Notes: a model not told the origin generated them from the letters alone. Shown: positions 3,798 through 41,819, counted from the stretch's first letter. The stretch: 64,000 nucleotides of DNA from a bacterium (GCA_021790895.1 JAJYFM010000001.1:4494-68493), one strand, 5' to 3'. Numbers and translations are program-made.

Positions 3798-3874
3798 CCG
3801 TTCGCCGAGCGAATCGAGGGCAACGGTACGACGGTCGAGGTTATTCAGAAGGCTTCAGTCACTCCACCGCATCC

Positions 3875-4405: not shown

Positions 4406-4408
4406 CGC

Positions 4409-7083: not shown

Positions 7084-7089
7084 GACGCT

Positions 7090-7820: not shown

Positions 7821-8137
7821 TGCATCGCCCTACCGCCGAGCACATGGATGTGGAGATGTTCGACCGTCTGTCCGCCGTCGTCCCCGGTATTGACGACGAA
7901 TCGGTATCCCGAGCCGCAACGTTCGCCGATCTCGGTTGCCAGCGTGAAGAGCGCGGCGAGCCCCTGCGGGCGTTCGCGTAGGTAGGCGGCAAAATTCGCA
8001 GCGTGAAAACGCGGCATCACCAAAACGTGGGTCGGCGCCATCGGATGGAGATCGGCGATCGCAATCGCTTCATCGTTTGCCGCGACGAGCGTTGAAGGGA
8101 TCTCGCCGGCGAGGATTTTGCAGAAAATACAATTCAT
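7805..8137 (-). CDS. HIT family (histidine triad) nucleotide hydrolase
   Basis: Histidine triad HLHIHVLGG and N-terminal CIFCKI. The start at ATG 8137 forms an ATGA overlap with the upstream stop codon. Confidence 0.85.
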   Translation of the reverse strand: MNCIFCKILAGEIPSTLVAANDEAIAIADLHPMAPTHVLVMPRFHAANFAAYLRERPQGLAALFTLATEIGERCGSGYRFVVNTGDDGGQTVEHLHIHVLGGRAMQWPPG

Positions 8138-9636: not shown

Positions 9637-9638
9637 CG

Positions 9639-15557: not shown

Positions 15558-17648
15558 CTAGTTGACCGGGGTTTGAGTGATCGCCGTGATGAGCCGCCCC
15601 GTCATCGGGACGCCGAGCCCGGTCACGAGATCGTATCCCGGGGTCGAGAAGCAACAGCCGGTGATCGGCCCGCCGCCGTTTTGGTTCGCCTGGTTCTCGC
15701 CGTACTGTACGTCGTAGAAGACCGAGGCGTAGTTCGCCCGTGCTGAAGCGATCTGGTAGAAGAGCGGGGCGGGGTTCCCCAAACGATAGCTATACGGGCC
15801 GGTCGAGCCGTTCCCGCAGGTCGCCGATTGCTTGCAGGCCTGGAGGACGAGCGCCCATTGCGCGGCGGCCTGCGGCGCTGCCATCGAGGTTCCCCCTAAG
15901 GCAGCGATCGTTCCGCCCTCGGCGATATAGAAGCCGACTCCCTGGCCGGTGTACGGATCGGCATCCATCGAGATATCCGGGATGCCGCGGAAGCCGCCGA
16001 GCTGAGGGTTTCCCCCGGTCAGCGTGAGTCCGGCTTGCCACGGGGGTGCCGGAATGAGGACCGAGACGCCGCCGCCGGAGCCGACATTGTTGCCGAAGGT
16101 TCCGTCGCCGCCGAGCGTCGTCTGATCGGCCCACGCGGTGATCTGGCCGAGGAGATTGCCGGCGCCATCGACTGGGAGATTCACCCCGCCGACCGCGACC
16201 ACGTTGGCATCGCTCGCCGGGTACGAGACGCAGGGGCTCGTCGGGTATAAGCCCGCAGCGGGATTCGCACAGTCGGCGTTTCCGTTATCGCCGGAGGCGA
16301 CGAAGACCGCGATCCCTTCCGCAGCGAGCGCTGCGAACTCCGCCGGGCCGAGCCCGGTACCGCCGGGCCCGACGTAGGCGGAACCGAAGCTCGTCTCGCC
16401 GCCGCCGTAGCTGAGGCTCAACACGTCGGAGCGATTATCGGCGATCGCCTGCTGGATCTCGAAATCGGCGAGTTGGATGCCCTCGGCATCGCCGAGCGTT
16501 TCTCCGCTCGGGCAGCCCGTCACGCCGACGTTTGCGGTGTCAACCACGCCGGTCGTCGCGTTGTAACAGTACGAGTAATAGGCGAGATAGAAGTTCTCGT
16601 TCACGCCGGGGGCGAGGCTCGCGGTCGCCTCGGTATCGAGTTGCGCTTCGCCGTCCTCAACATTGCAGGTCTGGAAATTCGGAACGCCCGAACCCGAGAG
16701 TTCGCACGGCAAAAAGTTCGGGTTGAGCGGCGTCGTCACCGGCGGAGGCATCGTAAAGCCCGTCGCCGGGAAGCCCGGACCGATAAGCGCTGGAATCGTC
16801 GCCGGATTCACGAAGAGCGGCGAGGTTGGAATCAGGCTGATCGTCGCGACCCGCGTGTGAAACGCCGCACCGTAGTAGGGAACGTCGTTCGGATCGATCG
16901 GCCCGGTGCCGATAATTCCGAGGCCGATTCCGCTTCCGGTAAGCCCCGCGTTATACGCGCCGGAGAAATCGAAGGCGCGCGCGACTTGCTGCGGGGAGAG
17001 CCCGGGCCCGAAGGTTCCGGTGGAGGGACGGATGAGAAAATTATGCACCTGCGAGGCGATCGGGACGAGCGCATTGAGTGCGGCCAGCGGGATGCTGCCC
17101 GCCACATGCGGAGTTCCGATCGGAGCGATAAAGCGCTCTTTCCCGTATTGGTAATAACCGAACTTCACGCCGAGCGCGGCGGTGAACTGCGTGCTGGTGC
17201 CGACGAGCGAGAGCACTAAATTCTGCGGCCATGAGCCGACGCCGATACCATACTGCTGAAAATAGGCGCTGACTTTTGCGCTACTCTCCGGCGCAGCACC
17301 GTAGATCTGCCCGATCTGCTGCGGGCTCAGGAAGTGCCGGTAATTCGGATTCCCCGGCGTACTCGCTTGCTGCGCGTAGGAGATCAGTCCGGCTTCGTTC
17401 TGTAACTGCGGTTGTGCGAGCATCGCCAACGCGACGGGTTTGGTGAGCGGACCGATGTAGGTCGCCTGTTGCAGCATGCGCTGCCCCCAGCGAAACGATG
17501 ACGGACCCGTCGACGTGATCGGCGGGAGATTGCCGCCGCCGTTGCTCGTCGGCAGCGCCGACCCTGCGCCACCGCCGCCACATGCCGCGAGTAAGGATGC
17601 CGCGATGACTGCTGCGGCTGCGGTTTGAATGCGCTGCATGCGAAACAT
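15558..17648 (-). CDS. secreted S53 (sedolisin/kumamolisin-like) serine-carboxyl peptidase, lipoprotein-type signal
   Basis: 696 aa. Lipobox LLAACGGGG. Pro-kumamolisin-like activation domain ([16 protein letters not shown]). Catalytic motifs [14 protein letters not shown] and GGTSMAAPQ. Confidence 0.85.
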
Positions 17649-20310: not shown

Positions 20311-20817
20311 TTAGGCTCGTTCGGCGAGCCGACGCTCGACGTACGGAATCAATCCGCCGGCGTCGATGAGCGAGCGCATAAAGGGCGGAAACTCCGCGGC
20401 CTTATAGCTCGTGCCTTTCGAGAGATTCCGGATTGCGCCGGCTGCTGGGTCGATCTCGATCTCGTCGCCCGCAGCAATCGCATCGACGGCCTCGGGGCAT
20501 TCGAGGATCGGAAGACCGATGTTGATCGCGTTGCGATAAAAAATGCGCGCGAAGGACTTTGCGATGACCGCTCCAACGCCGGCCCCTTTAATGGCGATCG
20601 GTGCGACCTCGCGGCTCGACCCGCAACCGAAGTTGCTGTCGGCGACGATGATATCCCCGCCCTTGACGCGGCTTGAGAACTCCGGATCGATGCCCTCCAT
20701 CGCATGTTTTCCGAGCTCTTTTTCCTCGACGAGGTTGCAGTATTTCCCCGGAATGATGACGTCGGTGTCGACATTCTTTCCGTAGGTATGGGCGCGTCCG
20801 CGCAGCGTTTTTTCCAT
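20311..20817 (-). CDS. leuD: 3-isopropylmalate/homoaconitate dehydratase small subunit, short (type 2, archaeal-like) form
   Basis: Internal ATG 20817 gives 168 aa, [26 protein letters not shown]..., with the GSSRE motif ([10 protein letters not shown]). Confidence 0.85.
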
Positions 20818-20833
20818 CGATGATCGCTCCTCT

Positions 20834-22123
20834 TTACGAATAAGCCGGCGCCGAGGCGACGACGCGCGGGTCGGTGATCCAGCCGGTGAGTGCCGAAGCG
20901 GCGCAGGTCGCGGGGGACGCAAGATAGACCTCGGCTTTCGGTGATCCCATGCGTCCGACATAATTGCGGTTCGTGGTCGAGAGGCAGCGTTCGCCGTCGC
21001 CCAGCGTCCCCATGTGTCCGCCGAAGCAGGCGCCGCAACCGGGTGTATTGACGACGCAACCGGCGCTCGCCAACGTTTTCAAAATACCCTCGTCTACGGC
21101 TTGCAGCCAGACTTTCTGCGAGCCCGGGTTGACGATTACGCGCACGCTCGGCGCGATCTTTTTCCCATGAAGAATCTTCGCTGCGGCGCGGAGATCCTCG
21201 ATGTACCCATTCGTGCAACTGCCGATGAACACTTGGTCGAGGAGTACGCGGTCGCGCGTCACTTCGGAGATCGGGTGAACGTTATCGGGCGTATGCGGAC
21301 AGGCGATTTGCGGCTCGAGAGCGTCGACGTCGATGGTCACGATACGTTCGTAGACGGCGTCGGCATCGGCGCGCTCGACGACGAAGGGGCGATCGGTGCG
21401 CTCGCGCACGTACGCCAACGCCTTCTCGTCGGCGTGGAAGATACCGTTCTTCGCGCCGGCTTCGATCGCCATGTTCGCCATCGTCGATCGCCCGGTAATC
21501 GAAAGCGCATCGATGGTCGAGCCGTGAAACTCGATCGAGCGGTAGGTCGCGCCGTCGATGCCGAGTCGCCCGACCGTCGCGAGCATCAAATCCTTTGCGT
21601 AGACGCCCTCTTTGAGCATGCCGTTATAGACGACCTTGATCGTCGGTGGTACGCGTAGCCAGACTTCGCCGAGCACGAACGCCGCAGCGATATCGGTTGA
21701 ACCCATGCCGGTCGCAAAAGCACCGAGAGATCCGTAGGTGCAGGTATGCGAATCGCCTCCAACGATCAACTCGCCCGGAGCGACGAGCCCTTCCTCGGGA
21801 AGCACGACATGCTCGATGCCTCCTCTACCGACATCGAAAAAATGTTCGATCTCTTGCTCAGCGGCGAACTCTTTCATCTGCCGCGCGAGGTTCGCCGATT
21901 GTGCGTCCTTCGCCGGAACAAAATGATCTTCGACGAGCGCGATCTTCGTACGATCGAAAACGCGCTTCGCACCCTTCATCGTGCGCATCACATTCACGGC
22001 GACCGCAGCGGAGAGTTCGTTCGCCAACACGAGATCGACCTTCGCGTTGATGATCTGCCCTGGTTCGACGCGATCGAGCCCGGCGTGGCGCGCAAGAATT
22101 TTTTCGATGAGGGTCATTCCCAC
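20834..22123 (-). CDS. leuC: 3-isopropylmalate/homoaconitate dehydratase large subunit (aconitase family, type 2)
   Basis: 429 aa. N-terminal [11 protein letters not shown] and Fe-S cluster cysteines (GSCTNG and [12 protein letters not shown]). Confidence 0.9.
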
Positions 22124-22252
22124 GATGCTTTGGTACTCCGTTAAGCGTTTGGGTGGAGAAACGAAGGCTCCCGTTCTCTATTCTCCCCGGCGCGGGCGAC
22201 TCCCGCAGTGCAGCAGGCATAGCCCCGCAGAGGCGCGCACATTCCAAAGAGT

Positions 22253-23557
22253 ATGAACGATCGAACCTTCGGCTTCGCGACGCGCGCCATCCATGCCGGA
22301 ACGCCTCCCGACCCCGTCACGGGCGCACGCGCGGCACCGATCTATCAGAGCTCCGCATTCGTCTTCGGCTCCACCGAGGAGGCGGCCGAACTCTTCGCAT
22401 TGCGGGGTTACGGACACATCTATAGCAGAATCAGCAATCCCACCGTTGCTTCGTTTGAAGAGCGCATGGCGAGCCTCGAAGGCGGGCTCGGCGCGGTCGC
22501 ATTCTCGAGCGGACTCGCCGCGCAACTCGCAATCGTCCTTGCACTCGCGCGAAACGGCGACCACATCCTCTGCTCGCAAAGCGTCTACGGCGGAACGATC
22601 ACGCAATTTTCTATAACGTTGGAACGCATGGGGATCGCGGTCACCTTCGTGCCGCTCGACGACCCAAACGCCATGCGCGCCGCGCTACGCCCCGAAACGA
22701 AGATGCTCTTCGTTGAAACGATCGGCAACCCGTCAGGTTCGATCGCCGATCTCAAAGAACTCGCGGCATTCGCGCACGACAACGGCTTCCCGCTCGTCGT
22801 CGATAACACGTTCGCTTCTCCCTATTGCTGCCGCCCCATCGAGTTCGGCGCCGATATCGTCGTCGCATCGGCGACGAAATTCATCTGCGGACACGGAACG
22901 ACCGTCGGCGGCATCGTCGTCGATGCAGGGCGCTTCGACTATGGATCGGCGCGCTTTCCGTTACTCTCCGAACCGAGCCGCGGCTATCATGGGAAGATTT
23001 TCACCGAGACCTTCGGCGAGTATGCGTTCCTGATGCGGCTGCGCGCGGAGATTCTCCGCGACGTCGGCGCGCAACTCGGCGCACACGATGCATGGCTCTT
23101 GCTGCAAGGTCTCGAGACGCTGCCGCTCCGAATGGAACGCCACGTCGCCAACGCGCAAGCGATCGCGCAGCATCTCGAACGCCACCCCGACGTCGTTTGG
23201 GTACGTTACCCCGGCCTGCCCTCGCATCCCGATCACGCTCGCGCCGCGCGTTATCTGCCGCGCGGAGCAGGGTCGGTCTTTACCTTCGGCATTCGTGGCG
23301 GACGCGATGCCGGTCGGCGTTTCATCGACGCGTTGGAATTATGGAGCCATCTCGCCAACGTCGGCGATGCGAAATCGCTGGTCATCCACCCCGCCTCGAC
23401 GACGCACTCGCAACTCAACGACCAAGAGATGCTCGCCGCAGGCGTTGCGCCCGAAGCGATTCGTCTCTCGGTCGGTCTCGAAGATCGCGAAGATCTCCTT
23501 TGGGATCTCGAGCGGGCGCTTGCGCAGGCGCACTCCGGTGAGGCGGCGAGCCGATGA
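22253..23557 (+). CDS. metY: O-acetylhomoserine/O-acetylserine sulfhydrylase (Cys/Met metabolism PLP enzyme)
   Basis: 434 aa. PLP-lysine region SATKFICGHGT and typical N-terminal FATRAIHAG and YSRISNPT. Confidence 0.9.
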   Translation: MNDRTFGFATRAIHAGTPPDPVTGARAAPIYQSSAFVFGSTEEAAELFALRGYGHIYSRISNPTVASFEERMASLEGGLGAVAFSSGLAAQLAIVLALARNGDHILCSQSVYGGTITQFSITLERMGIAVTFVPLDDPNAMRAALRPETKMLFVETIGNPSGSIADLKELAAFAHDNGFPLVVDNTFASPYCCRPIEFGADIVVASATKFICGHGTTVGGIVVDAGRFDYGSARFPLLSEPSRGYHGKIFTETFGEYAFLMRLRAEILRDVGAQLGAHDAWLLLQGLETLPLRMERHVANAQAIAQHLERHPDVVWVRYPGLPSHPDHARAARYLPRGAGSVFTFGIRGGRDAGRRFIDALELWSHLANVGDAKSLVIHPASTTHSQLNDQEMLAAGVAPEAIRLSVGLEDREDLLWDLERALAQAHSGEAASR

Positions 23558-24036
23558 TCCTCACTCGCCCCTCAGAGTACCGCGACCTGCTCGCGCGCAG
23601 CAAAAGCATCGCTATGGTCGGCGCATCGAGCGACCCGTTGCGCCCGAGCTATACCGTCTTCTCGTTCGTACGCACCGGCGGGCTCTTCTCCGTCGTGCCG
23701 ATCAATCCGAAGCTCGACGAGATCGACGGTCTCCGCGCATATCCTTCGCTCGTTCAATATGCCGAAGCGCTCGGCGCGCCCGATATCGTCGACGTCTTCC
23801 GCAATCCGGCCTCGGTGCTCCCGGTCGTCGACGAAAGCATCGCCGTCGGCGCGAAAGCGATCTGGTTCCAATACGGCGTGATCAACGAAGAAGCGATCGC
23901 CCGTGCCGACGCCGCCGGGATCGACGTCGTCGTCGACCGCTGCATCAAAGTCGAGATCGCACGCTTTCACGGAGGTCTTGCGACCGCGGGGCTCAATAGC
24001 GGCGTCATCACCTCGCGTCGCAGCGGAGTTCGATGA
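23554..24036 (+). CDS. CoA-binding domain protein (YccU/YneT-like)
   Basis: 160 aa. SIAMVGASSDPLRPSY Rossmann-like CoA_binding_2 signature. ATGA overlaps on both sides. Confidence 0.85.
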   Translation: MILTRPSEYRDLLARSKSIAMVGASSDPLRPSYTVFSFVRTGGLFSVVPINPKLDEIDGLRAYPSLVQYAEALGAPDIVDVFRNPASVLPVVDESIAVGAKAIWFQYGVINEEAIARADAAGIDVVVDRCIKVEIARFHGGLATAGLNSGVITSRRSGVR

Positions 24037-25145
24037 GTCGAGAACGCGAGGCCGAGCATCTCGACACGCGCATTCTCGCGACGATAGAACGCTGGCATCG
24101 CCACGGAGACTCTCTGAGCGACGCGGAATTCGACGACCTCGCCATCGCGATTTTCGACTACCAGTTGCGCTACGCACCGGCGTACGCGGCGTACTGCGCG
24201 GGGTACGGGATTTCGCCGAGCGCGCTGCCGACGACATGGCGCGCGATTCCGCCGCTCCCCGCGCGTGCGTTCAAAGAGGCCGCAATCGCCGCGTTTCCGA
24301 GCGAATGCGCCGAATTACTCTTCGAGAGCAGCGGCACCACCCTCGGCGCACCGAGTCGGCATTTTCTCGAAAACCGCCGCCTCTACGACGCGTCGCTGCT
24401 CGCGGGCTTCGAACGAGCGATGCTCGGCGACGGAGCACGGCTCCGTTATCTGCTCCTCGTTCCGAACCCCGCACAACGCCCCCACTCTTCGCTCGGCTAT
24501 ATGATGGGGCGCGTCGCCGCGCAGTTCGGTGACGGCGAGACCGGCTGGTACCTCAACGAGGATCGCTTCCTGCTCGATGCGTTTACCGCCGATATTGACG
24601 ATGCATGCGAGCGCGCGCAGCCGGTCTGCATCGCCACCACCGCATTCTCGCTTCTCCATCTCCTCGAGGCATTCGAAGAGCGCGGCAAAACGCTCGCCCT
24701 TCCCGCAGGCTCGCGCATGATGGAGACCGGCGGTTTCAAAGGGCGCGAGCGCTCCGTAGCGCGAGAGGAGCTCTACGCACGCGCGATGCATGCGTTCGGA
24801 ATCTCCGCCGAAAGCATTCTCGCCGAATATGGAATGAGCGAGCTCTGCTCGCAGTACTACGATCTTCCGGGCTCGGAGCGACGTGTCGCCGACGCGATCC
24901 ATCGCGTGAAAATCGCGCCGCCGTGGCTTCGCACACGCGTCCTCGACGAACGCGAGCGCGATTGCGCTCCGGGAACGATCGGAGCGCTCGCGCATATCGA
25001 TCTCGCAAATCGTAGTTCCTGTCTCGCCGTGCTCACCGAAGATCTCGGGGCCAGCCTCGACGAGGGCATCGTGCTCCTCGGGCGCGAGAGCGGCGCAGCG
25101 TTGCGCGGCTGCTCGCTCGACGCCGAAGATCTCCGTCGAGCGTGA
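24033..25145 (+). CDS. LuxE-like acyl-protein synthetase (adenylate-forming)
   Basis: 370 aa. N-terminal FDDLAIAIFDYQLRYAPAYAAYC and FESSGTT motifs resemble the LuxE family (PaaK-related fold). Size fits LuxE. Confidence 0.75.
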   Translation: MSREREAEHLDTRILATIERWHRHGDSLSDAEFDDLAIAIFDYQLRYAPAYAAYCAGYGISPSALPTTWRAIPPLPARAFKEAAIAAFPSECAELLFESSGTTLGAPSRHFLENRRLYDASLLAGFERAMLGDGARLRYLLLVPNPAQRPHSSLGYMMGRVAAQFGDGETGWYLNEDRFLLDAFTADIDDACERAQPVCIATTAFSLLHLLEAFEERGKTLALPAGSRMMETGGFKGRERSVAREELYARAMHAFGISAESILAEYGMSELCSQYYDLPGSERRVADAIHRVKIAPPWLRTRVLDERERDCAPGTIGALAHIDLANRSSCLAVLTEDLGASLDEGIVLLGRESGAALRGCSLDAEDLRRA

Positions 25146-26353
25146 CCGCGCTCTCCTCGCTCTCGACGCGCGCGATCGCAACCGCGATCGGCGATGCCGC
25201 GACGCGTTGGTGCGACGCCGATTTTCCGCCGCGCGTCCGCGTGACCGAGGATATCGCGGAACGAACCGGTTATAGCGTTCCCGCCGTCGAGTTCGCGCTC
25301 GATGCGCTCTTCGGCGAGTTGCGCACCGCTGCGCTGCTCGAGACGATCGGACGCGAACTCGGCGATCCTGCAGCGCTCGATGCCCCCACGCCGCGGATAC
25401 TCCCGCTCGGGCGCATCGCGATTCTCTCCAGCCGCACCACGATCGGCGTGGCGATCCCCGCGATGTGCTTTGCGCTCTGCGCGAAGAACGACGTGCTCGT
25501 GAAGGATCGCGAAGATCGTCTCGTCGCCGCTTTTGCCGAAACGCTCGGAGAGGAGCTCGAAGCCTTCGATCGCGCACTCCACGTCGAGAACTGGGATGCG
25601 CGTCACAAAGGAACGCGTTTGCAAGATGCACGTCTCATCGTCGTCTATGGCAACGACGAAACGATCGCCAACGTGACGAGCGAGCATGCGGGAAGCGCGC
25701 GTACTATCGGCTTTGGTTCGCGCACGAGCATCGGCTTTCTCGGCGCCGCGGCGCAGAGCGAGCCCGCTGCGCGCGCGGTTGCGCTCGCCGGTGCCGCGCG
25801 CGATGCGAGCCTCTACGAAGGCGACGGTTGCATGAGCCTGCACGCACTCTTTTTCGAACGGAGTTCCGCCGGCGATCCAAACGCACTCGCCGCCGAGTTC
25901 GCTGCGGCAATGGAGCGCGCGGCGATCGAGTTTCCCGTCGGGACGCGCTCGACATCGCAGCGCGCCGCGATGCTGCAAGAGCGCAATCTTGCAGCGTTTC
26001 GCGCCGCTGCCGGGAACGGCGCCGCATTTTGCGACGAACACCTCAGTTTTCTCGTGCTGCTCGCGCCGCCGACGCAGGAGCCGCCGAAGTTCTTGCCGCG
26101 AACCGTCGTATTGTTGCCGGTCGGCTCCCTTGAGGAGATCGCCGCCTACGTCGAACGGCACGCCTTGCCGGTGGAATGCCTCGGCGTTACCGGGACTCCG
26201 CGCTCGTACGCGGAACTAGCCTCGCGTATCGGCGCCGCTCGCATCGCACCACTCGGTGAGATGCAACGGCCGCCGCTCGGTGCACATCACGGTGGGCGCC
26301 CTCGGATCGCCGAGTACGTCCGCTTCCTCGATGTCGACGGAGAGCATCTGTGA
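25142..26353 (+). CDS. LuxC-like acyl-CoA (acyl-protein) reductase
   Basis: 403 aa, aldehyde-dehydrogenase-like, with a candidate catalytic Cys in YEGDGCMSLHALF. Follows the luxE-like gene with a GTGA overlap. Confidence 0.75.
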   Translation: MTALSSLSTRAIATAIGDAATRWCDADFPPRVRVTEDIAERTGYSVPAVEFALDALFGELRTAALLETIGRELGDPAALDAPTPRILPLGRIAILSSRTTIGVAIPAMCFALCAKNDVLVKDREDRLVAAFAETLGEELEAFDRALHVENWDARHKGTRLQDARLIVVYGNDETIANVTSEHAGSARTIGFGSRTSIGFLGAAAQSEPAARAVALAGAARDASLYEGDGCMSLHALFFERSSAGDPNALAAEFAAAMERAAIEFPVGTRSTSQRAAMLQERNLAAFRAAAGNGAAFCDEHLSFLVLLAPPTQEPPKFLPRTVVLLPVGSLEEIAAYVERHALPVECLGVTGTPRSYAELASRIGAARIAPLGEMQRPPLGAHHGGRPRIAEYVRFLDVDGEHL

Positions 26354-27651
26354 GCGAACCGCTGGAGAACGTACGCGGCCCCATTCCCGGAAAGCGCAGC
26401 ACCGAGTTGCTCGCGCGTCTCCGCGCGCATGAATCGCGCAATGTGACCGCAATAGAAGAGCGCTTCCCCGTCGTCTGGGAATCGGCGCTCGGATCGGTCG
26501 TCACCGATGTCGACGGGAATGAGTACCTCGATCTCACCTCAGCATTCGGCGTCGCGGCGATCGGGCACAGCAATCCCTACGTCGCGTCGGCGGTCGCCGA
26601 CCAAGTCGTGCGACTCGCGCACGGCATGGGCGACGTTCACCCCAGCGAGGTACGGATCGAGCTGCTGGAGCGTATCGCTTCGCTTCTCCCGCCCGGGCTC
26701 GGCCATACCTACCTCGCAACCTCGGGCTCCGAAGCGATCGAGGTTGCATTGAAGACCGCGATACTCGCAACCGGAAAGCCCGGCCATGCGAGCTTTCGCA
26801 ATAGCTATCACGGCTTGAGCCTTGGGGCGTTGGAAGTCACCGGAATAGAACGCTTTCGCGCGCCGTTCGCAGGAGCGATCGGCGGCGACGCGCTCTTTCT
26901 CGATTATCCGCGCGCGCGAAATGCCGCCGACGACGATGCCGCCGCGGCGCTCGAGCACGTGCGTTCGGCGCTCCGCGCGCGCAGCGATATCGGCGCGCTC
27001 GTCATCGAGCCGATCCAGGGACGCGGCGGCGTCATCCTTCCACCGACCGGTTTTTTGAGCGGCGTTCGCGAGATCTGTCGCGAGCTCGATATCCTCATGG
27101 TCGTCGATGAAATATGGACCGGCTTCGGGCGTACGGGGACGATGTTCGCCTGCGAACGCGAGGCGGTCGTTCCCGATCTGCTCTGCATCGGCAAAGCGAT
27201 GGGTGGCGGTCTCCCGATTGCCGCAGTCGCCGGCACCGAAGCAGCGATGAACGCGTGGCCGCTCTCGGAGGGCGAAGCGCTGCACACATCGACGTTTCTC
27301 GGCAATCCGCTCGCCTGCGCGGCCGCGCTTGCAACCATCGGCGAGATCGAGCGCAATGAACTCGTCGCACGGGCAAAGCATATCGGCGTAACGATGGTCT
27401 CCCGACTTGGGAATCTCCACCATCATAAGAGCGTCCTCGATATTCGCGGTCGCGGCATGATGTGGGGTGTCGAACTCGACAGCGCGGCGAGCGCGCATGA
27501 AGCGGTCGTACGTGCGTTATCGCTCGGTCTCATCATCTTGCAAGCCGGACCGGAGGGAAATGTGATCTCCATTACGCCACCACTCGTTATGAGCGAGCGA
27601 CAGCTCTTCCGTGCGATCGATCTCCTCGACCGCGCATTGGCACCGCGATGA
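26350..27651 (+). CDS. class III PLP-dependent aminotransferase (acetylornithine/GABA/omega-transaminase family)
   Basis: 433 aa. Motifs GSEAIEVALK, DEIWTGFGRTG and PLP-lysine CIGKAMGGG. Confidence 0.9.
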   Translation: MSEPLENVRGPIPGKRSTELLARLRAHESRNVTAIEERFPVVWESALGSVVTDVDGNEYLDLTSAFGVAAIGHSNPYVASAVADQVVRLAHGMGDVHPSEVRIELLERIASLLPPGLGHTYLATSGSEAIEVALKTAILATGKPGHASFRNSYHGLSLGALEVTGIERFRAPFAGAIGGDALFLDYPRARNAADDDAAAALEHVRSALRARSDIGALVIEPIQGRGGVILPPTGFLSGVREICRELDILMVVDEIWTGFGRTGTMFACEREAVVPDLLCIGKAMGGGLPIAAVAGTEAAMNAWPLSEGEALHTSTFLGNPLACAAALATIGEIERNELVARAKHIGVTMVSRLGNLHHHKSVLDIRGRGMMWGVELDSAASAHEAVVRALSLGLIILQAGPEGNVISITPPLVMSERQLFRAIDLLDRALAPR

Positions 27652-28697
27652 GCGCTCCTATCCGCGTCGGGATCGTCGGGAGCGGCTTCGGTGCGAGCAC
27701 GCACCTCCCCGCACTCCGCGCGCACGCGCGCTTCGAGGTGATCGCCATCGCTTCGCCGCGCAATGCCGCCCGCATCGCCGCCGATCGAAAGATCGAGCAT
27801 GCGTTTTCTTCCTGCGCCGAGATGCTCGCCGGCTGCATGCTCGACGCCGTCGTCGTTGCATCGCCGCCCTTTGCCCACCACGACGATGCGCTCGCGGCGC
27901 TCCGATCCGGGAAGCACGTCCTCTGCGAGAAACCCTTTGCGCTTGATATCGCGCAGGCCGAAGAGTTGGTGGCAACGGGAAAATCGGCCGGCACAGCGTG
28001 TGGAATCGCACATGAGTTTCGCTTCCGCCCCGAGCGAATTGCGTTGGCGGAACTGGTCGCCAACGGCCATCTCGCACCGATCAGGGAGATCGAATACACG
28101 CAACTGTCGGGTTTCCTGCGCGCAAAGGAGATGAGGCCACGCGGATGGTGGTTTCAACGCGCGCGCGGCGGCGGTATCGCCGGCGCGATGCTCTCGCACG
28201 CGATTGACGCAGCGAACGCCGTCCTCGGTATGATCCCGGTCGAGGCGATCGGCACACTGCGTACGGCAAACCCCGAGCGCTGCGACGCCGAGGGTACGTT
28301 TATCAGCGAGGTCGACGACGGCGCTTTCGCCCTGCTGCGCTACGCCGATGGTACCGTTGCACGCTTAAGCGTCGACGGCACGGCGGCAGTCGATTCTTTC
28401 ACTTTTGCGATTCACGGCGAGAGCCGCACTGCCGTCTGCAGTGGGAAGAGTATCGCCGATCAGCGCTTCTTCAGTGTCGACGACGAGGAGACGAACGAAC
28501 TCGACTGCGCGCCCTCACGGTACGCTCGTTTCGCCGCAATCAATGCGAACGTTCCGCCGATGATGGAGCTCTACGATGCGTGGGTTGCGAAGATTGACGG
28601 AAGCACCGCTCCGAGCGCGGCCGGGCAGGCGCTCCCGAGCTTCGCTGACGGACTTGCGACGCAGCGCATTCTCGCCGCGATCGGTTTCGGGAAATAA
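27648..28697 (+). CDS. Gfo/Idh/MocA family NAD(P)-dependent oxidoreductase
   Basis: 349 aa. N-terminal IRVGIVGSGFGASTHLPAL Rossmann motif and EKPFAL motif. Confidence 0.85.
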   Translation: MSAPIRVGIVGSGFGASTHLPALRAHARFEVIAIASPRNAARIAADRKIEHAFSSCAEMLAGCMLDAVVVASPPFAHHDDALAALRSGKHVLCEKPFALDIAQAEELVATGKSAGTACGIAHEFRFRPERIALAELVANGHLAPIREIEYTQLSGFLRAKEMRPRGWWFQRARGGGIAGAMLSHAIDAANAVLGMIPVEAIGTLRTANPERCDAEGTFISEVDDGAFALLRYADGTVARLSVDGTAAVDSFTFAIHGESRTAVCSGKSIADQRFFSVDDEETNELDCAPSRYARFAAINANVPPMMELYDAWVAKIDGSTAPSAAGQALPSFADGLATQRILAAIGFGK

Positions 28698-28705
28698 CGC
28701 GCCAC

Positions 28706-28829
28706 GCGCACCACTGTCAGCCCGAGTAGCGCGTAGCGCACCACTGTCAGCCCGAGTAGCGCGTAGCGCACCACTGTCAGCCCGAGTAGCGCGAAGCGCA
28801 CCACTGTCAGCCCGAGTAGCGCGTAGCGC
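28706..28829. repeat. 30-bp direct tandem repeat, 4 copies plus a partial copy
   Basis: Unit gcgcaccactgtcagcccgagtagcgcgta at 28706, 28736, 28766 (one t-to-a change) and 28796. Copies abut with no spacers. Confidence 0.95.
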
Positions 28830-28930
28830 GTATCGAGGGCACCGCGCACATCTCGATACCGCATGCCTCGATACGCTGCCGAGCCTGCCCTGAGCGAGCG
28901 AAGCGAGTCGAAGGGGCAGCTACTCGGCAT

Positions 28931-29640
28931 GACAGCGAAGCTATTCGGCGCGGCGACGATCAATGCAGCGGCGCGCGACGACGCCTGCGGATGCACCCGA
29001 CGAGCGTCTAGCGAGGAGCGGTGCGCCGCAGGCGTGGTACGCGCGCGCCTCGATACGCGCTTCGCGCTACTCGGCGTGACAAGCTACGCGCGCCTCGATA
29101 CGCCGCTTCGCGGCTACTCGGCGTGACAGCGAAGCTATTTGGCGCGGCAACGATCAATGCAGCGGCGCGCGACGACGCCTGCGGATGCACCCGACGAGCG
29201 ATTAAGCGAGCGGCGAGGACCCTGACATTGCTTGTCCGAGCCGCGAGCGTCTAGCGAGGAGCGGTGCGCCGCAGGCGTGGTACGCGCGCGCCTCGATACG
29301 CGCTTCGCGGCTACTCGGCGTGACAAGCTACGCGCGCCTCGATACGCCGCTTCGCGCTACTCGGCGTGACAGCGAAGCTATTTGGCGCGGCAACGATCAA
29401 TGCAGCGGCGCGCGACGACGTCTGCGGATGCACCCGACGAGCGATTAAGCGAGCGGCGAGGACCCTGACATTGCTTGTCCGAGCCGCGAGCGTCTAGCGA
29501 GGAGCGGTGCGCCGCAGGCGTGGTAAGCGCGCGCGCCTCGATACGCGCTTCGCGCTACTCGGCGTGACAGCGACCTGCTCGGCGTGGTAAGCGTGCGCGC
29601 CTCGATACGCCGCTTCGCGGCTACTCGGCGTGACAATGCA
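28931..29640. repeat. long direct repeat, 3 copies (194 bp, then 243 bp, then 243 bp or slightly more), each with an internal hairpin and paired ~45-bp sub-repeats
   Basis: Copies begin at gacagcgaagctatt at 28931, 29125 and 29368. Copies 2 and 3 carry a 49-bp segment absent from copy 1. The sub-repeat cgcctcgatacgc(c)gcttcgcg(g)ctactcggcgtgaca occurs twice per unit. Confidence 0.9.
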
Positions 29641-29644: not shown

Positions 29645-31990
29645 CTACGGCAGCGCGAAACTCGACGAGTTGATGAGTACCGGCACGAGCCCGCTCGCCG
29701 AGGTGCACGGTGCACTCGCGCTACAGATGCCCGAGGCAGCGAAGTAATCCCCGGCATCGACTTTCCCGTCGCCGTTTGCATCGTACCAGACCGCGATGTG
29801 GTAGTTCGTTGCCGATGCGGGAATATCGGCGATCCGGAACGTGCCGTTCGCCGCCACCGGAACGCCGGTGGTGAAGTTGCTGTCGAGGATCGTCGGCGCG
29901 GCGTTGGTCGCATTACTGTTGCTGTAAGCGAACGCGACGAACTGCGCTTTCGCCGGTATCGTCGACGCGAACGCATTGTCGTTTTCGAGTTGCGCCATCG
30001 CACGATAGACATCGAGGCGCCCATGCCCTTGATTGGGATCGTTGATGTTATCGGCGGTTCCGTCGATGAGCCCCTCGAGTTGTGCGACGGTTAACGACGG
30101 ATCGGCGGAGAGTAAGAGCCCTGCCGCTCCGGTGACGTGGGGCGTTGCCATCGAGGTTCCGGCGATCAGCGTGTAGCAGGTCGCGGGGGTGGCGCACGGT
30201 GGGCTCCCCGTCGTCGAGTAGAGATTGGCGATCCAGTGGAGATCGTCGTTGTCGCCGGTGCCCGACGGGTCGCCGCCCGGCGCGACGACACCGAGCCCCG
30301 GGCCGCTGTTGGAGTACGATGCAACGTACTCCCCCGGTGCGGGAGTATCGGCGGTCGGAAGGGCGGCGGTGCAGGCCGCACTCACCGTCGGCCACGTATC
30401 ACCGGCGCAGGCGTTATTGTCGTTGAGCGCGGTCGCACCGACCGAGAGAACGCCGGGATAGGCCGCCGGATAGTCGAGCCCTTGCACACCTTGATTGCGT
30501 TCGTTCCCGGCAGCGGCGACGACGAGCACGTTATGCGCGAGCGCGTATTCGACGGCATCCTGCTCGGTGAAATCCGGGCCGCTGTTTGGTTGCGAGCCGA
30601 GACTCAGATTGATGACGCGGTCGCCTTTGAGCACCGCATGATAGATCGCGGTCGCTTCATCGGCGGTCGAAGCGCTCGAGTTCGCTCCCGAACCGGAGAA
30701 GATTTTATAGAAATCGAGCGTCACGCCACCGGCGACGCCGGCGAAACCGGCAACGTTGTTGTCGGCCGCAACCGCGATTCCCGAGACGTTGGTCCCATGT
30801 CCATCGTTATCTTGGACCGCCGGACAGGGCGTAGCGAGCAACGGCGTCGGACAGACGGTCGTCACCGTCGCGCTTCCGCCGACCGGCGTCACATCTTCTT
30901 CAGCGCTGCCGAGATGCGAGATGAGATCGTCCTGTGCCCACGTGTTGCTCGGCTCGGTATCGATACCGGTATCGAGCACCGCAACTTTGGTCGTCGATAG
31001 ACCGAAACCGACGTTGACCGGCCAACTGCTGCCGTAGTTCCAGGCGTGCATCATACCGATCTGATACATGTCCCACTGGTCGAGCGGATCGAACATCGAG
31101 TCGTTCGGCGGCGTCGTGAGCGCGAGGTTGAGCGGATAGCGGCGCCCGACGCTTTGGACGCTGAGCACCCCCGCGTGCGCGCGGAGTCGCGCCGCAACGA
31201 TCGCGGCGCTTCCGGCAGGAACGCGGAGCAGATCGCTGCGCACCGGAGCGTCGCTCGGCGTAATCGTTCGCGCGAGCAGTGCGCCGCTGCGCGCTGCGAG
31301 CGCAAACGGATGCACGCTGCCCGCGCCGATCGCCGCCGGATCGTAGCGCACCTCCAGAAGGGTCGCGTGCCCGGAGATCGGCGTCGACGGCGCGACCTCA
31401 AGCGGGCGACGCACCGGCATCCGGACGAACGGCAGCGATGCAGGGCCGCGCCCAACCGAGCCGACCGATGCGATACTGCCCGCCGTGTCGGCCTGCTGGT
31501 TGTAGAGAATCGTGACCGGGTTCGCGTTGCTCTGCACGCAGAGCGTATAGGCGCCGTTCGCACTGCCTCCCGTGAAGCTCACCGTCATCAGCGTCTGGCT
31601 CTGCGGGAACGGATTCGCGCTGCCGCCGTAGGGAGGCGTGGTGGCGGTCGGCGTGACACCGATCGCGCTACCGTTGACGCTGACCGGTATGCCGGTCGGA
31701 AGCGAGACGAAGCTGAGCGCGGCGGGCGTCGGCGATGGGCGCGTGTCGGGAACCGGCGTTGCCCCCGGGGTCGGCGTCGCCGTCCCGGTCGGCACGATCC
31801 CAATCCCCGCGGTGCAGAGCCCCGGCGTCGGCACAACCGAGGGTGCAACTGAGGGCGTCGTCAGCGGCGTCGGCGAGAACGTCGGCACGGGGCTCGGCGA
31901 GCCGCCTCCGCCGCCGCAAGCGACCAACAGCGCACACGTCGCGCTTAGCGCCGCGAATGCAGGGAGAAAACGCACGCTCGAACTCTTCAC
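29645..31990 (-). CDS. secreted S8 subtilisin-like serine peptidase, lipoprotein-type signal, with a C-terminal extension
   Basis: 781 aa. Lipobox LLVACGGGGG. Catalytic triad motifs VAVLDTGID, DGHGTNVSG and GTSMATPHVTGAAG. Confidence 0.9.
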   Translation of the reverse strand: MKSSSVRFLPAFAALSATCALLVACGGGGGSPSPVPTFSPTPLTTPSVAPSVVPTPGLCTAGIGIVPTGTATPTPGATPVPDTRPSPTPAALSFVSLPTGIPVSVNGSAIGVTPTATTPPYGGSANPFPQSQTLMTVSFTGGSANGAYTLCVQSNANPVTILYNQQADTAGSIASVGSVGRGPASLPFVRMPVRRPLEVAPSTPISGHATLLEVRYDPAAIGAGSVHPFALAARSGALLARTITPSDAPVRSDLLRVPAGSAAIVAARLRAHAGVLSVQSVGRRYPLNLALTTPPNDSMFDPLDQWDMYQIGMMHAWNYGSSWPVNVGFGLSTTKVAVLDTGIDTEPSNTWAQDDLISHLGSAEEDVTPVGGSATVTTVCPTPLLATPCPAVQDNDGHGTNVSGIAVAADNNVAGFAGVAGGVTLDFYKIFSGSGANSSASTADEATAIYHAVLKGDRVINLSLGSQPNSGPDFTEQDAVEYALAHNVLVVAAAGNERNQGVQGLDYPAAYPGVLSVGATALNDNNACAGDTWPTVSAACTAALPTADTPAPGEYVASYSNSGPGLGVVAPGGDPSGTGDNDDLHWIANLYSTTGSPPCATPATCYTLIAGTSMATPHVTGAAGLLLSADPSLTVAQLEGLIDGTADNINDPNQGHGRLDVYRAMAQLENDNAFASTIPAKAQFVAFAYSNSNATNAAPTILDSNFTTGVPVAANGTFRIADIPASATNYHIAVWYDANGDGKVDAGDYFAASGICSASAPCTSASGLVPVLINSSSFALP

Positions 31991-32032: not shown

Positions 32033-33805
32033 CTAGTGCGCGGCCGGAAGATTCGGGTCGCCGAGGGCGTCCGCCATCGCGCGATAGATATCGAGCCGCC
32101 CACAGCCCTGCGCCGCCGCGCTCACGCTCGGAAGCACGTACGCATCGCTGCAGAGATAGTTCCGCACTTGGGTCGGCGTGAGGCTCGGCTTTACCGAGAG
32201 CAGCAACGCCGCGGCTCCCGTCACGTGCGGCGTCGCCTGCGACGTACCGGCGATGAGAATGCGGCAATCATTCGTCGAACCGGCAGCGGCATCGAAATCC
32301 GGCGTACAGGTCGCGCCGCTCATCGCGGTGCTCGAGTAGATGTTCTCGATCCAATGCAAGACGTCGACGCCGGGGCCGACGTTCGCCGGGTCGCCGCCCG
32401 GTGCAACGAGCCCCCAAGTCGTGCTTCCGGCGACATAGTTGGAGTACGAGGCAACGTACTCGACCGGTGCAGTCGGGCTGCCGGGCGCGCCGACGCTATA
32501 GGTGCCGTTGGGATAGCCGTCGGAGAGCGCGCTTGCACCAACCGCAATCACCCCGGTGTCGCAGGCAGGCGCATCGAGCGAAGCGCTACCGGAGTTTCCG
32601 GAAGCGGCGACGACGACGACGCCGGCTGCGAGCGCGTTGGCGACGGCGTTCGCTTCGAGCGGATCGTCACCGCCGACGCAACTCGCGCCGATGCTCAAGT
32701 TGATGACCTTCGCACCATGTGCGACGGCATCGTCGATGCCGGAAGCGATATCGGCAGTCGATGCACTCGTGCTACACGCCTGCGGGTTACTTGCGAGCTG
32801 CGATGCGCAACTCGACGGCGGCGATGGAAAGACGCGCTCGATGATGAGCGAGACGTTCCCGCCGGCACCGACGAAACCGAGGCTATTGTTGAGATCTGCC
32901 GCGGCGATTCCGGCAACATCGGTGCCGTGTCCATCGAGATCGGTGACGTAATTCGAACTCGATTGTACGCCGGTGCTGATGTTGGTAATGAAGCAATGCG
33001 TGTAGACGACTTTCGATTGAATCTCGGGATGAGTTACATCGGCTCCGGTATCGACGATAGCGACCCGAATCGCCGAATTTCCCATCGCATCGGCGTTCTG
33101 ATAACCGACCGGTGCATCGGCAGCGTTCGCGTAGGCCCACGCATGGCCCAGCGAGATCGCATGCATATCCCATTGCCCCGGCAGGCTCGAACCCGGCGAT
33201 GGACTCGGCGCGGGATTCCCGTTCTCGTAATAGGGTGCAGAGGAGCCCGTGAATCCGTGGAAATACGGATCGTTCGTCGTTACCGGTGCGAGAACGCCTT
33301 GCGTGGAGCGCAAACCCATCGGCACGACCGCGGTGACGCCGGGCAACAAGCGTAACTGCGCTGCGATCGCTGCGCTCTTCGCGGCATCGACGGCGACGAT
33401 ATCGACGGCGGTCGCGAGATGCGAAAAAACAAAGCGCTGCTTCACGTTACCGCCGATACGCGCTATCTGCGTCGAAAGCGTCCCGCGCGCACCCGTCGCA
33501 ACGGCGGTGCTACGAACGACCTCCAGCAGCCCCGGAATCGTCCTCGGCTGCAAGCGCACCTTCGTCGGTGCCCTGCGGATTGCGTCGCTGCCGAACGAGG
33601 CGAGCGATGCCGCCATCCGCCCCGTACTCGTCCCGTTGACGCTGCTCGGGCAGCTGTACCCGACACTCGTACTCACCGGCGCACTCGTCGGTGCGGGCGT
33701 CGGTACGAGGCCGCCGATAATCCCACCGATACCGCCTCCACCGCCGCAGGCGACGAGGAGCGATCCGGAAAGGAGCGCTGCGAGCGCGATCCGAGCGGAG
33801 ATCAT
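32033..33805 (-). CDS. secreted S8 subtilisin-like serine peptidase, lipoprotein-type signal
   Basis: 590 aa. Lipobox LLVACGGGGG. Catalytic triad motifs VAIVDTGAD, DGHGTDVAG and GTSQATPHVTGAAA. Confidence 0.9.
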   Translation of the reverse strand: MISARIALAALLSGSLLVACGGGGGIGGIIGGLVPTPAPTSAPVSTSVGYSCPSSVNGTSTGRMAASLASFGSDAIRRAPTKVRLQPRTIPGLLEVVRSTAVATGARGTLSTQIARIGGNVKQRFVFSHLATAVDIVAVDAAKSAAIAAQLRLLPGVTAVVPMGLRSTQGVLAPVTTNDPYFHGFTGSSAPYYENGNPAPSPSPGSSLPGQWDMHAISLGHAWAYANAADAPVGYQNADAMGNSAIRVAIVDTGADVTHPEIQSKVVYTHCFITNISTGVQSSSNYVTDLDGHGTDVAGIAAADLNNSLGFVGAGGNVSLIIERVFPSPPSSCASQLASNPQACSTSASTADIASGIDDAVAHGAKVINLSIGASCVGGDDPLEANAVANALAAGVVVVAASGNSGSASLDAPACDTGVIAVGASALSDGYPNGTYSVGAPGSPTAPVEYVASYSNYVAGSTTWGLVAPGGDPANVGPGVDVLHWIENIYSSTAMSGATCTPDFDAAAGSTNDCRILIAGTSQATPHVTGAAALLLSVKPSLTPTQVRNYLCSDAYVLPSVSAAAQGCGRLDIYRAMADALGDPNLPAAH

Positions 33806-41395: not shown

Positions 41396-41819
41396 CATCG
41401 TTCATTCCGTCGCCAAGCGCCGCGGCGTCCGTCAATTCACAAAATTTGCGATCGTCGGGCTCTCCGGGACGATCCTCAACTTCATCCTCTTCACCGTCCT
41501 CCAGCACTTCGTTCCCAACCACGACCAAGCGTTGCAGTATGCGATCATCTATTCGATCGCGTTCATGGCGGGCGGCGTCTCGAATTACTATCTCAATCGA
41601 CGTTGGACGTTTCGCTCCGATGCAAACGCGGTACGGGAGGGCGTGCAATTTCTCACGGTCTCTGCGCTCGCGTTGCTCGTCGGTCTCGGGGTCGCTCCGC
41701 TCACCAAACCGTTCTTCGGCAACCATTACGGGCATCGCACGTGGCTGGTCGGAACGATCGCCGGCATCTTCGTCAATTTTTTCGTCAATAAATACTGGAC
41801 GTTCCGGCACACGCGGTGA
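41370..41819 (+). CDS. GtrA-family membrane protein (polyprenyl-phosphate-sugar translocation)
   Basis: 149 aa, 4 TM helices. Motifs FTKFAIVGLSGTILNF and NYYLNRRWTFR are typical GtrA. The start is uncertain (TTG 41370 or TTG 41388). Confidence 0.8.
   Translation: MPIGIGLHSIVHSVAKRRGVRQFTKFAIVGLSGTILNFILFTVLQHFVPNHDQALQYAIIYSIAFMAGGVSNYYLNRRWTFRSDANAVREGVQFLTVSALALLVGLGVAPLTKPFFGNHYGHRTWLVGTIAGIFVNFFVNKYWTFRHTR

Follow-up and report, generated by a model that had tools for sequence, protein, structure and literature searches.

The present analysis concerns a stretch of 64,000 nucleotides of bacterial DNA (GCA_021790895.1, JAJYFM010000001.1:4494-68493; the whole of this stretch is called the window below) and an operon located at its positions 22253-28697. 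The operon consists of six translationally coupled genes in the core chromosome of a bacterium of the Eremiobacterota (WPS-2). Judged from its sequence, and with a probability that we put at about 55%, the core of this operon encodes a LuxE/LuxC-type carboxylic acid reductase, made up of two soluble proteins, together with a dedicated class III pyridoxal phosphate (PLP) enzyme to which it is coupled and by which an acid would be converted to an aldehyde and the aldehyde to an amine. The genes concerned, all on the plus strand, encode a LuxE-type acyl-protein synthetase of 370 amino acids (aa) (24033-25145), a LuxC-type acyl-thioester reductase of 403 aa (25142-26353), a class III aminotransferase of 433 aa (26350-27651) and, as the last gene of the operon, a Gfo/Idh/MocA NAD(P) oxidoreductase (GFO) of 349 aa (27648-28697). 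Overlaps of 4 bp (ATGA or GTGA) were found at all five gene junctions of the operon. The first-pass annotation of the window had recognised these four open reading frames (ORFs) and their families at the same positions, and profile hidden Markov models agreed with it; the motifs that had been quoted for these proteins (FESSGTT, GDGCMS, DEIWTGFGRTG and GKAMGGG) are all present in them.

The LuxE-type protein matched the LuxE profile PF04443 with 40.5 bits (gathering threshold, GA, 24.9), its residues 41-361 covering positions 46-383 of the 391 of the profile, and its sole significant sequence match in the PDB was LuxE, chain 7xc6_E (E 8e-6). The motif FESSGTT (LuxE position 97) aligned with the adenylation motif FTSSGTS of Photobacterium phosphoreum LuxE, and GGFK236 aligned with GGWK238, i.e. 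with Lys238, whose replacement in the K238A mutant inactivates the P. phosphoreum enzyme (PMC9157457). The tail of the latter carries the motif 358-TRxxKGCxLS-367 with the acyl-accepting Cys364 (PMC9157457). The window protein terminates in LRGCSLDAEDLRRA, where RGCSL matches the Lux KGCxLS motif. It is devoid of the C-terminal subdomain of ANL enzymes and has a short tail instead, which ends 10 residues past Cys360 (LRGCSLDAE); the sequence LRGCSL[DSTA]AE was invariant among the tails of the approximately 70 intact Eremiobacterota LuxE orthologues listed. The AlphaFold model of this protein, built from the single sequence without an alignment, had a pLDDT of 35.

The LuxC-type protein scored 135.7 bits with PF05893 (GA 21), with residues 6-388 covering positions 3-394 of 401. 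By sequence, its sole significant solved relative was 7XC6, the P. phosphoreum LuxC-LuxE complex, and a profile of the LuxC clade searched against the PDB matched 7xc6_A (1.7e-17) and nothing else. Cys230, in GDGCMS (position 227), aligned with the catalytic cysteine of 7xc6_A (QQACFS; Cys296 in the P. phosphoreum numbering), and His382 aligned with its essential His442 (the histidine of GAHDG); mutant data on both of these P. phosphoreum residues have been published (PMC9157457). Cys230 was invariant in 60 diverse LuxC homologues, down to ~21% identity, while His383, the neighbour of His382 in a conserved HHGG pair, was present in at least 90% of them. The AlphaFold model built on the alignment of the 60 homologues reached a pLDDT of 94.2, and its best match in the PDB was again 7xc6_A (template modelling score, TM, 0.84; root-mean-square deviation 2.9 Å; E 4e-21), the next matches being ordinary aldehyde dehydrogenases (ALDHs; TM 0.58-0.70, E ~1e-14). 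The protein is ~75 residues shorter than the LuxC of the lux systems (403 vs. ~480 aa) and is without ~45 N-terminal residues. At the other end, the alignment to 7xc6_A stops at chain residue 443 (454 in the numbering of the paper) with only 8 query residues left, and thus the P460-P488 segment is missing from the window protein. This 'oligomerization' segment of LuxC reaches over the neighbouring subunit and closes a hydrophobic myristoyl cleft of >40 Å (PMC9157457).

The window pair and the LuxC-LuxE pair of P. phosphoreum (7XC6; luxCDABE) therefore belong to the same families and share the adenylation motif, the equivalent of Lys238, the (K/R)GCxL cysteine and the LuxC cysteine and histidine; however, they are only ~18% identical, and the partner in the window is an aminotransferase, whereas in the lux system it is luciferase. 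The scores with the NCBIfam equivalogs of LuxE (NF052244, 28.6 bits vs. a cut-off of 550) and LuxC (NF052251, 30.4 bits vs. 750) indicate that the window proteins and the bioluminescence proteins are not orthologous. A bioluminescence system, which the first-pass annotation had already discounted, was rejected on the basis of these very low scores, and a scan of the operon genes and of neighbouring ORFs revealed neither luciferase (luxA, luxB) nor luxD. We consider, with some confidence, that the acyl-relay mechanism of LuxE and LuxC can be transferred to the window pair; the specificity for C14 fatty acids cannot.

The class III (fold type I) enzyme (PF00202, Aminotran_3, 341 bits) had the E. 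coli putrescine and the mycobacterial GABA aminotransferases as its best solved relatives (~1e-68). The transaminase domain of PigE was matched at 1.8e-61, and several racemases and epimerases that share its fold at ~1e-58 to 1e-60. The Schiff-base Lys282 (GKAMGGG, from position 281) and the PLP-N1 aspartate, Asp253 (DEIWTGFGRTG), align with those of YgjG and are invariant in 67 orthologues. Other positions of the active site are replaced. The gate glutamate of EPIQGEGG is Arg225 (EPIQGRGG) in 67 of 67 orthologues; the alpha-carboxylate arginine (tiRiePPL in YgjG) is Ser407 (viSitPPL), with Ser, Ala or Thr across the 67; the distal Arg/Lys of FHG(K/R) is Leu156 (YHGL), which is conserved in the Eremiobacterota orthologues; and residue 256, elsewhere the glutamine that follows DE(I/V), is an aromatic residue (Tyr, Phe or Trp) in them. 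We take the first two of these positions, the equivalents of E211 and R398 of GabT, to be the Glu/Arg switch for glutamate and 2-oxoglutarate, and the distal Arg/Lys presumably serves the omega substrate, as in the GabT and OAT literature. Since the carboxylate-binding arginines are gone, the signature argues against substrates of the GABA, ornithine, acetylornithine or diaminobutyrate type, and hence also against the ornithine/lysine-type aminotransferase considered in the first-pass annotation. None of the 25 curated NCBIfam equivalog families listed (GabT, ArgD, PatA, BioA, LysJ, PigE and others) was reached, the best score being 312 bits against a cut-off of 574. The enzyme appears from these residues to be a distinct, unexplained subfamily. 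Despite the atypical signature, it is most likely a transaminase that would convert the aldehyde formed by LuxC to a primary amine.

The last protein, GFO, has an N-terminal Rossmann domain (PF01408, 92 bits) and a C-terminal alpha/beta domain of the family PF22725 (61.6 bits). The segments GIVGSGFG (Rossmann GxGxxG), CEKPFA (with Lys95 of the EKP motif) and SH184xID (with the histidine regarded as catalytic) are conserved in 60 GFO orthologues, and alanine stands at the usual aspartate position of GGGxxxDxGxH, which we take to be a motif of the GFO family. Its solved relatives are distant (best E 2.5e-20 in the PDB), and the NCBIfam models of characterised GFO subfamilies (IolG, AFR, GFOR, WlbA and others) were not reached, the best scoring 82.9 bits against a cut-off of 330.

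Taken together, the conserved motifs suggest that LuxE would use ATP to adenylate a free carboxylic acid and would then hold it as a thioester on Cys360 of its flexible C-terminal tail. We infer from the conserved residues and the fold of the second protein that the tail would hand the acyl group to Cys230 of LuxC, where reduction with NAD(P)H would yield the aldehyde. The reactive aldehyde would pass straight to the class III enzyme and be transaminated to a primary amine; this step is proposed because the two genes are adjacent and in one case fused, because LuxE, LuxC and a class III aminotransferase also stand together in a sister clade, probably through a separate recruitment, and by analogy with PigE, TamA/TamH and TabE/TabA (see below). 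The weakest step, which would be present in the Eremiobacterota version only, is that of GFO: judging from its context, this enzyme probably performs one NAD(P)-dependent redox step, the target of which would be a hydroxyl, hemiacetal or carbonyl group of the same scaffold.

The conservation of the operon was analysed in a genome scan with one genome per species, which gave 206 tblastn-confirmed relatives of the LuxC subfamily, of which the best 80 loci were kept. The scan patterns were short and specific for this LuxC subfamily, and absence outside the phylum is not shown by such a scan. The 80 loci were of Eremiobacterota, except for a few contigs that were labelled Acidoferrum or Verrucomicrobiia and had the same synteny. 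The LuxC of the window is identical to a protein on contig DAHZJF010000006.1 of the assembly GCA_027406585.1, and its relatives are labelled Eremiobacteraeota, Vulcanimicrobiota or Baltobacteraceae. The aminotransferase was found directly 3' of LuxC in 66 of the 69 evaluable loci, in agreement with the co-conservation on which the first-pass annotation had made its proposal depend, and GFO followed the aminotransferase in 63 of 64. LuxE lay directly 5' of LuxC in 55 of 75 loci and 5' of LuxC with a single opposite-strand DUF1565 gene in between in another 13; it was missing from the locus in the remaining 7. Overall, the three genes LuxC, aminotransferase and GFO adjoin one another in ~95% of the 64-69 evaluable genomes. 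The flanks vary across the loci, while LuxC, aminotransferase and GFO stay together.

In one contig (L174, protein P0140) LuxC and the aminotransferase form a single protein of 818 aa, in which the LuxC part (5-374) is continued in frame by the aminotransferase part (384-810). LuxE is located directly 5' of this fusion and an unrelated gene 3' of it; GFO is absent. In another (L087) two GNAT genes stand between LuxE and LuxC. The one at 6777-7217 of this single Eremiobacterota contig is an AAC(6')-like N-acetyltransferase that overlaps the LuxC start, is thereby coupled to LuxC in translation, and scores 138 bits with AAC_6p_group_E, just under the cut-off of 140; as a single case, it might be read as a hint to an aminosugar product. 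The DUF1565 gene mentioned above, which encodes a pectin-lyase-fold protein, marks a sub-clade in which it lies on the opposite strand immediately 5' of LuxC (L015, 6677-7948, and ~18 other loci); LuxE is found beyond it in some of these genomes and is gone from the locus in others.

An exhaustive profile search showed that the LuxC subfamily of the window reaches down to ~35% identity and that a second tier of longer LuxC proteins follows at ~28%. In the nearest outgroup clade (~28% identity), LuxE, LuxC and a class III aminotransferase occur together in five loci, all five without GFO, so the triad on which the proposal of the first-pass annotation rested recurs outside the phylum. The neighbours of these sister triads are two PhyH dioxygenases (L088), a gene with the BpsA_C polyamine-synthase domain (a BpsA-type aminopropyltransferase) together with a pump of the resistance-nodulation-division (RND) type (L091), a divergent undecaprenyl-diphosphatase gene (L094 and L099) and ABC exporters (L105, where the order is aminotransferase-LuxE-LuxC). 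The aminotransferases of these triads are ArgD-like (TIGR00707, 388 bits vs. a cut-off of 410) and have retained the Glu/Arg pair in its canonical form. The signature Arg225/Ser407/Leu156/aromatic-256, which holds in the 67 Eremiobacterota orthologues, is absent from them. At ~36% identity they are no closer to the window enzyme than E. coli YgjG is, and therefore the pairing of LuxE/LuxC with an aminotransferase probably arose more than once.

Other partners were observed when the best 80 loci of the wider clade in metagenomes were considered: a Zn-alcohol dehydrogenase (Zn-ADH) fused to the N-terminus of LuxE in 13 loci and a short-chain dehydrogenase/reductase (SDR) within ~4 kb 3' of LuxC in ~20. 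In one annotated SDR locus, from Comamonas (L089), an ABC importer of the TauA/NMT1 type is located between LuxC and the SDR. Some pairs have no obvious partner gene. The existence of these alternative partners indicates that the gene beside LuxE-LuxC is a variable 'aldehyde taker', which is here the class III enzyme. It also suggests that the environmental LuxE-LuxC pairs (L089, L092, L103-L172) are a modular family of small-acid reductases, which is uncharacterised as far as we found in the literature.

It is worth gathering the observations that weigh against the proposed route. Five loci have LuxC, aminotransferase and GFO with no LuxE within 8 kb, and the deep-branching loci L085 and L086 (7564-11971) read hypothetical protein-MetY-CoA-binding protein-LuxC-hypothetical protein, with LuxE, aminotransferase and GFO not nearby; these two loci keep the CTP synthase-PrmC-RF1-L31 synteny, and their two flanking hypothetical proteins had no match in Pfam or NCBIfam. 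The LuxC::aminotransferase fusion is from a single contig of 4.6 kb and may be due to a sequencing or assembly indel. The class III enzyme has no alpha-carboxylate arginine for glutamate or 2-oxoglutarate and has an arginine at the gate, and class III enzymes devoid of this arginine include racemases and aminomutases, so that the window enzyme may not be a simple transaminase. For the role of GFO, adjacency is the sole support. Finally, the flanking leuCD and cinA genes are also syntenic in the phylum, i.e. the co-conservation is partly plain synteny, and conservation within the phylum is therefore by itself weak evidence of a shared function. Stronger evidence is given by the gene overlaps, the local variation around a constant core and the LuxC::aminotransferase fusion.

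With regard to the substrate, Lux-like C14 fatty acids are rather disfavoured by the evidence, as are amino-acid semialdehydes whose binding requires a distal carboxylate site. A small polar acid is pointed to by the LuxC protein without the cleft-closing segment, by the operon without a thioesterase, acyl carrier protein (ACP) or acyltransferase gene, and by the importer-linked relatives. As the genes are conserved across the phylum and lie in a housekeeping region, the compound concerned is more likely to be a core metabolite or a constituent of the envelope than a natural product of sporadic occurrence.

One alternative, on the side of the envelope, is that the acid is a fatty acid, possibly a 3-hydroxy fatty acid, which would be converted through the fatty aldehyde to an amine or amino-alcohol with a long chain, destined for a lipid of the membrane. 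We regard it as rather improbable, although several observations keep it alive. The sole characterised LuxE and LuxC use myristate, the positions of the aminotransferase pocket are hydrophobic (Leu156 and Tyr/Phe/Trp256), and the sister triads adjoin an RND efflux pump, ABC exporters, a major facilitator superfamily transporter and an undecaprenyl-diphosphatase. Likewise, the products of TamA/TamH and TabE/TabA are fatty amines, and the one cultured member of the phylum, Vulcanimicrobium alpinum, contains iso-3-hydroxy fatty acids at 27%, its polar lipids all being of unidentified kinds (PMC9758169). However, the description of the same species reports no aminolipid (PMC9758169), and its data on fatty acids and unidentified lipids gave no lead to an amine. 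The segment that closes the >40 Å myristoyl cleft (P460-P488) is missing from the window LuxC, a luxD-type thioesterase, an ACP and an acyltransferase are absent from the operon, all six operon proteins look soluble, and related LuxE-LuxC pairs adjoin importers of small polar solutes. In this reading, GFO would oxidise the 3-hydroxyl group for a second amination or would reduce the aldehyde.

A small polar acid could also enter primary metabolism. The cassette might then be a phylum-wide route, free of carrier proteins, that replaces a canonical pathway of the Eremiobacterota and includes a class III enzyme re-wired by the arginine at its gate; the odds of such a non-orthologous route to an essential amine seem low to us. 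The candidate acids, each of them a long shot, are the side-chain or alpha-carboxylate of an amino acid, malonate, a sulfo-carboxylate and a uronic acid. The essential amine or amino-ketone made from the small anionic acid would, with little likelihood in each case, be a diamine or polyamine, beta-alanine, a taurine-like aminosulfonate, ornithine or lysine (by the logic of ArgBCD or LysZYJ) or a compound of the 5-aminolevulinate type, formed in an aminomutase-like step (by the logic of GluTR and glutamate-1-semialdehyde aminomutase, GSAM). Such a role would suit the near-universal presence of the genes among the retrieved Eremiobacterota loci and their location in a housekeeping region beside leuCD and metY. 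The putrescine and GABA aminotransferases are the closest solved relatives of the class III enzyme, the sister aminotransferases come near the ArgD cut-off (388 vs. 410 bits), the gene string of the sister locus L091 includes the BpsA-type polyamine aminopropyltransferase domain, and related LuxE-LuxC pairs stand beside an ABC importer of the TauA/NMT1 type or a permease of the xanthine/uracil family. The loss of the 2-oxoglutarate-binding arginine also resembles enzymes of the GSAM type, as reportedly described by Hennig et al. in 1997. On the other hand, the leucine at the distal-carboxylate position speaks against GABA, ornithine, acetylornithine and diaminobutyrate as substrates, and the window aminotransferase approaches none of the NCBIfam equivalog cut-offs. 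Unprotected amino-acid semialdehydes cyclise, which disfavours their direct transamination. A search of the literature on Eremiobacterota and putrescine gave nothing useful.

The third possibility concerns the partner of the LuxE/LuxC pair. Instead of the class III enzyme, GFO could be the one that takes up the product, reducing the aldehyde to an alcohol or oxidising its hemiacetal, while the class III enzyme would be a racemase, an epimerase, a lyase or a transaminase of some other intermediate. Dehydrogenases are indeed the commonest partners of LuxE-LuxC in the metagenomic loci described above, and the class III enzyme, which is without the canonical arginine, has the racemases and epimerases among its relatives. 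This arrangement is nevertheless unlikely, given that it is the aminotransferase and not GFO that adjoins LuxC, that is fused to it in L174 and that remains in the loci without GFO; moreover, enzymes of the GFO family typically act on sugars, cyclitols and hemiacetals, and not on simple aldehydes. That the genes have no pathway in common and are neighbours only through a phylum-wide syntenic region, in which leuCD, cinA, nadE and the peptidase genes round the cassette are also in conserved order, is very improbable and already disfavoured by the five consecutive 4-bp overlaps, the fusion protein, the recurrence of the triad in unrelated contexts outside the phylum and the flanks that change while LuxC, aminotransferase and GFO stay together.

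The route of acid to aldehyde to amine favoured here has several counterparts. In PigE (prodigiosin) and TamA/TamH (tambjamine YP1), an activated acid or thioester is likewise converted through the aldehyde to a primary amine by a reductase and a class III transaminase that are physically coupled, and both provide a precedent for a thioester reductase that channels its product to a class III transaminase (PigE, PMC8341465; TamA/TamH, PMC9594044). The reductases differ, since PigE's domain at the N-terminus is AAR/GluTR-like and TamH has a C-terminal thioester reductase domain, whereas the window has LuxC. PigE was for that reason rejected as an already characterised LuxC-aminotransferase fusion, the LuxC-clade profile also missing its structure 4ppm. 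In addition, these systems belong to sporadic natural-product clusters with ACP-bound chains, while the genes in the window are without a carrier protein and are core and phylum-wide. In the dodecylamine pathway TabQ/TabE/TabA of Streptomyces albus, a stand-alone acyl-thioester reductase of the ALDH superfamily, which its authors have likened to LuxC (bioRxiv 10.1101/2025.08.11.669332), is followed by a class III omega-transaminase, likewise a stand-alone protein, that gives the primary amine. TabE, however, takes an ACP thioester, is ATP-independent, has no LuxE partner and is encoded in a pigment biosynthetic gene cluster without a GFO or CoA-binding protein.

The same three-step logic, ending in an enzyme of the class III fold, is found within primary metabolism in ArgB/ArgC/ArgD, LysZ/LysY/LysJ and GluRS/GluTR/GSAM. 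These use phosphorylation or ligation to tRNA and GapDH or GluTR folds, in contrast to the adenylation and protein thioester proposed for the window, and the window aminotransferase is without the carboxylate-binding arginines that such substrates need. In engineered cascades of a carboxylic acid reductase (CAR) and an omega-transaminase, the ATP- and NADPH-dependent reduction of an acid to an aldehyde is followed by transamination, a likeness that the first-pass annotation had pointed out. The engineered CAR consists of one A-PCP-R protein and requires phosphopantetheinylation, while in the window the carrier would be the cysteine of the LuxE tail and the arrangement is a natural one.

In the searchable literature no pathway of LuxE/LuxC with a transaminase was found; the search returned only flagellin-glycosylation islands with LuxC and LuxE homologues and the work on tambjamine. 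The statement of the first-pass annotation that no such natural pathway has been characterised consequently holds for the LuxE/LuxC version and does not hold for the logic, which is known from PigE, TamA/TamH and TabE/TabA. In other words, the conversion of acid to aldehyde to amine is already established, while its proposed LuxE/LuxC version is new, uncharacterised and conserved across a candidate phylum.

The operon is larger than the four-gene cassette that had been delimited from the sequence at first, as two further genes on the plus strand precede LuxE. The first gene (22253-23557) encodes a MetY-type O-acetylhomoserine/O-acetylserine sulfhydrylase of 434 aa (PF01053, Cys_Met_Meta_PP, 436.5 bits; TIGR01326 of NCBIfam, 589.6 bits vs. 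a cut-off of 495.1), and the second (23554-24036) encodes a stand-alone CoA_binding_2 protein of 160 aa (PF13380, 123.6 bits). The CoA-binding gene was present in 54 and MetY in 48 of the 65 evaluable loci of the genome scan, MetY never occurring without the CoA-binding gene, which stays with LuxE in 6 genomes that have no MetY. MetY is probably a co-transcribed housekeeping gene, i.e. a passenger rather than a member of the pathway. The CoA_binding_2 protein is likely to be accessory to LuxE and LuxC and may supply or sense CoA or acyl-CoA. The GC content by codon position (GC3 0.73-0.78, GC2 ~0.5) showed that the plus-strand frames are the coding ones; the long antisense ORFs opposite the operon are shadows of the high GC content.

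Upstream of metY, a divergent intergenic region of 129 bp (22124-22252, listed on the plus strand) extends from leuC on the minus strand to the first gene of the operon and is the presumed promoter region. A sigma-70 consensus was not found in it, and there was no Rfam match at E ≤ 1 for a riboswitch or leader 5' of metY, which could have linked the operon to S-adenosylmethionine or methionine. No internal terminators above chance were detected in the operon. Transcription of the LeuC/LeuD-type genes (20311-22123), which occupy the minus strand, diverges from that of the operon. The first-pass annotation had connected this homoaconitase-like pair with the cassette; as a syntenic housekeeping neighbour on the opposite strand, it was rejected as a member of the operon. 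Nothing was found to support a reading from alpha-aminoadipate to lysine by way of LeuCD, and it is hard to reconcile with the missing distal carboxylate site.

At its 3' end, the operon is closed by a repeat-rich non-coding spacer (28706-29569, no strand), which is not a part of the pathway. Tandem Repeats Finder revealed in it a perfect-looking 30-bp unit, GCGCACCACTGTCAGCCCGAGTAGCGCGTA, repeated 4.1 times at 28706-28829 and a 243-bp unit repeated 2.3 times at 29001-29569 with 98% identity; no other copy of the 30-mer was found within the window. The contig of locus L003 matches the window at 100% through GFO and has wholly different genes immediately after it, which indicates that the repeats of the spacer mark the position of a breakpoint at strain level or of a join in the assembly. 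In the window, ~950 bp lie between GFO and the next genes, which encode two large subtilases on the minus strand. Three large genes of secreted-type serine peptidases, all on the minus strand (15558-17648, 29645-31990 and 32033-33805), bracket the operon. They encode one pro-kumamolisin/S8 protein and two S8 subtilases (590 and 781 aa) and are syntenic in many relatives.

The window also contains core-chromosome neighbours, namely the genes of CTP synthase, PrmC, RF-1, LeuCD, CinA, NadE and GlpX, and the further core genes of ProRS, IspG, RseP, Dxr, CdsA and RRF. At 60817-63296 the GC content drops from ~0.63 to 0.53-0.59, and a class I methyltransferase and a DegT/DnrJ/EryC1 sugar aminotransferase are encoded there; this low-GC end may be the edge of a polysaccharide/O-antigen locus or acquired DNA. 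A PMT_2/PIG-V-like glycosyltransferase, a GtrA-family membrane protein and a second PMT_2 protein are encoded in a row at 39881-43411, which has the most negative AT skew of the window (-0.23 to -0.18). Proteins with the N-terminal 'stalk' domain of copper amine oxidases are encoded at 8134-9696 on the minus strand of the window and also in L174, directly after the fusion (3768-4625). The sharing of this common secreted-protein module is probably coincidental.

LuxE and LuxC are experimentally known only as suppliers of fatty aldehyde to luciferase, and the window pair keeps every residue of the acyl relay in a phylum that is non-luminous and barely cultured. It is firmly tied to the class III PLP enzyme, by gene overlaps in most of the genomes and by the one fusion. 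The survey presented here points to environmental LuxE-LuxC pairs as modular units with interchangeable aldehyde-consuming partners (transaminase, Zn-ADH or SDR). If the proposed route is true, it would be the third independent natural solution for converting an acid through an aldehyde to an amine, after the fusions of the PigE/TamH type and TabE/TabA. As no phosphopantetheinylated carrier would be needed, it would be attractive for the biocatalytic synthesis of amines, and the class III enzyme with its relocated arginine would have an unexplored substrate logic. Should the primary-metabolic role hold, it would be the first housekeeping role of the fatty acid reductase machinery of the Lux systems. 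For the Eremiobacterota, the proposed route would mark an apparently core metabolite of the phylum.

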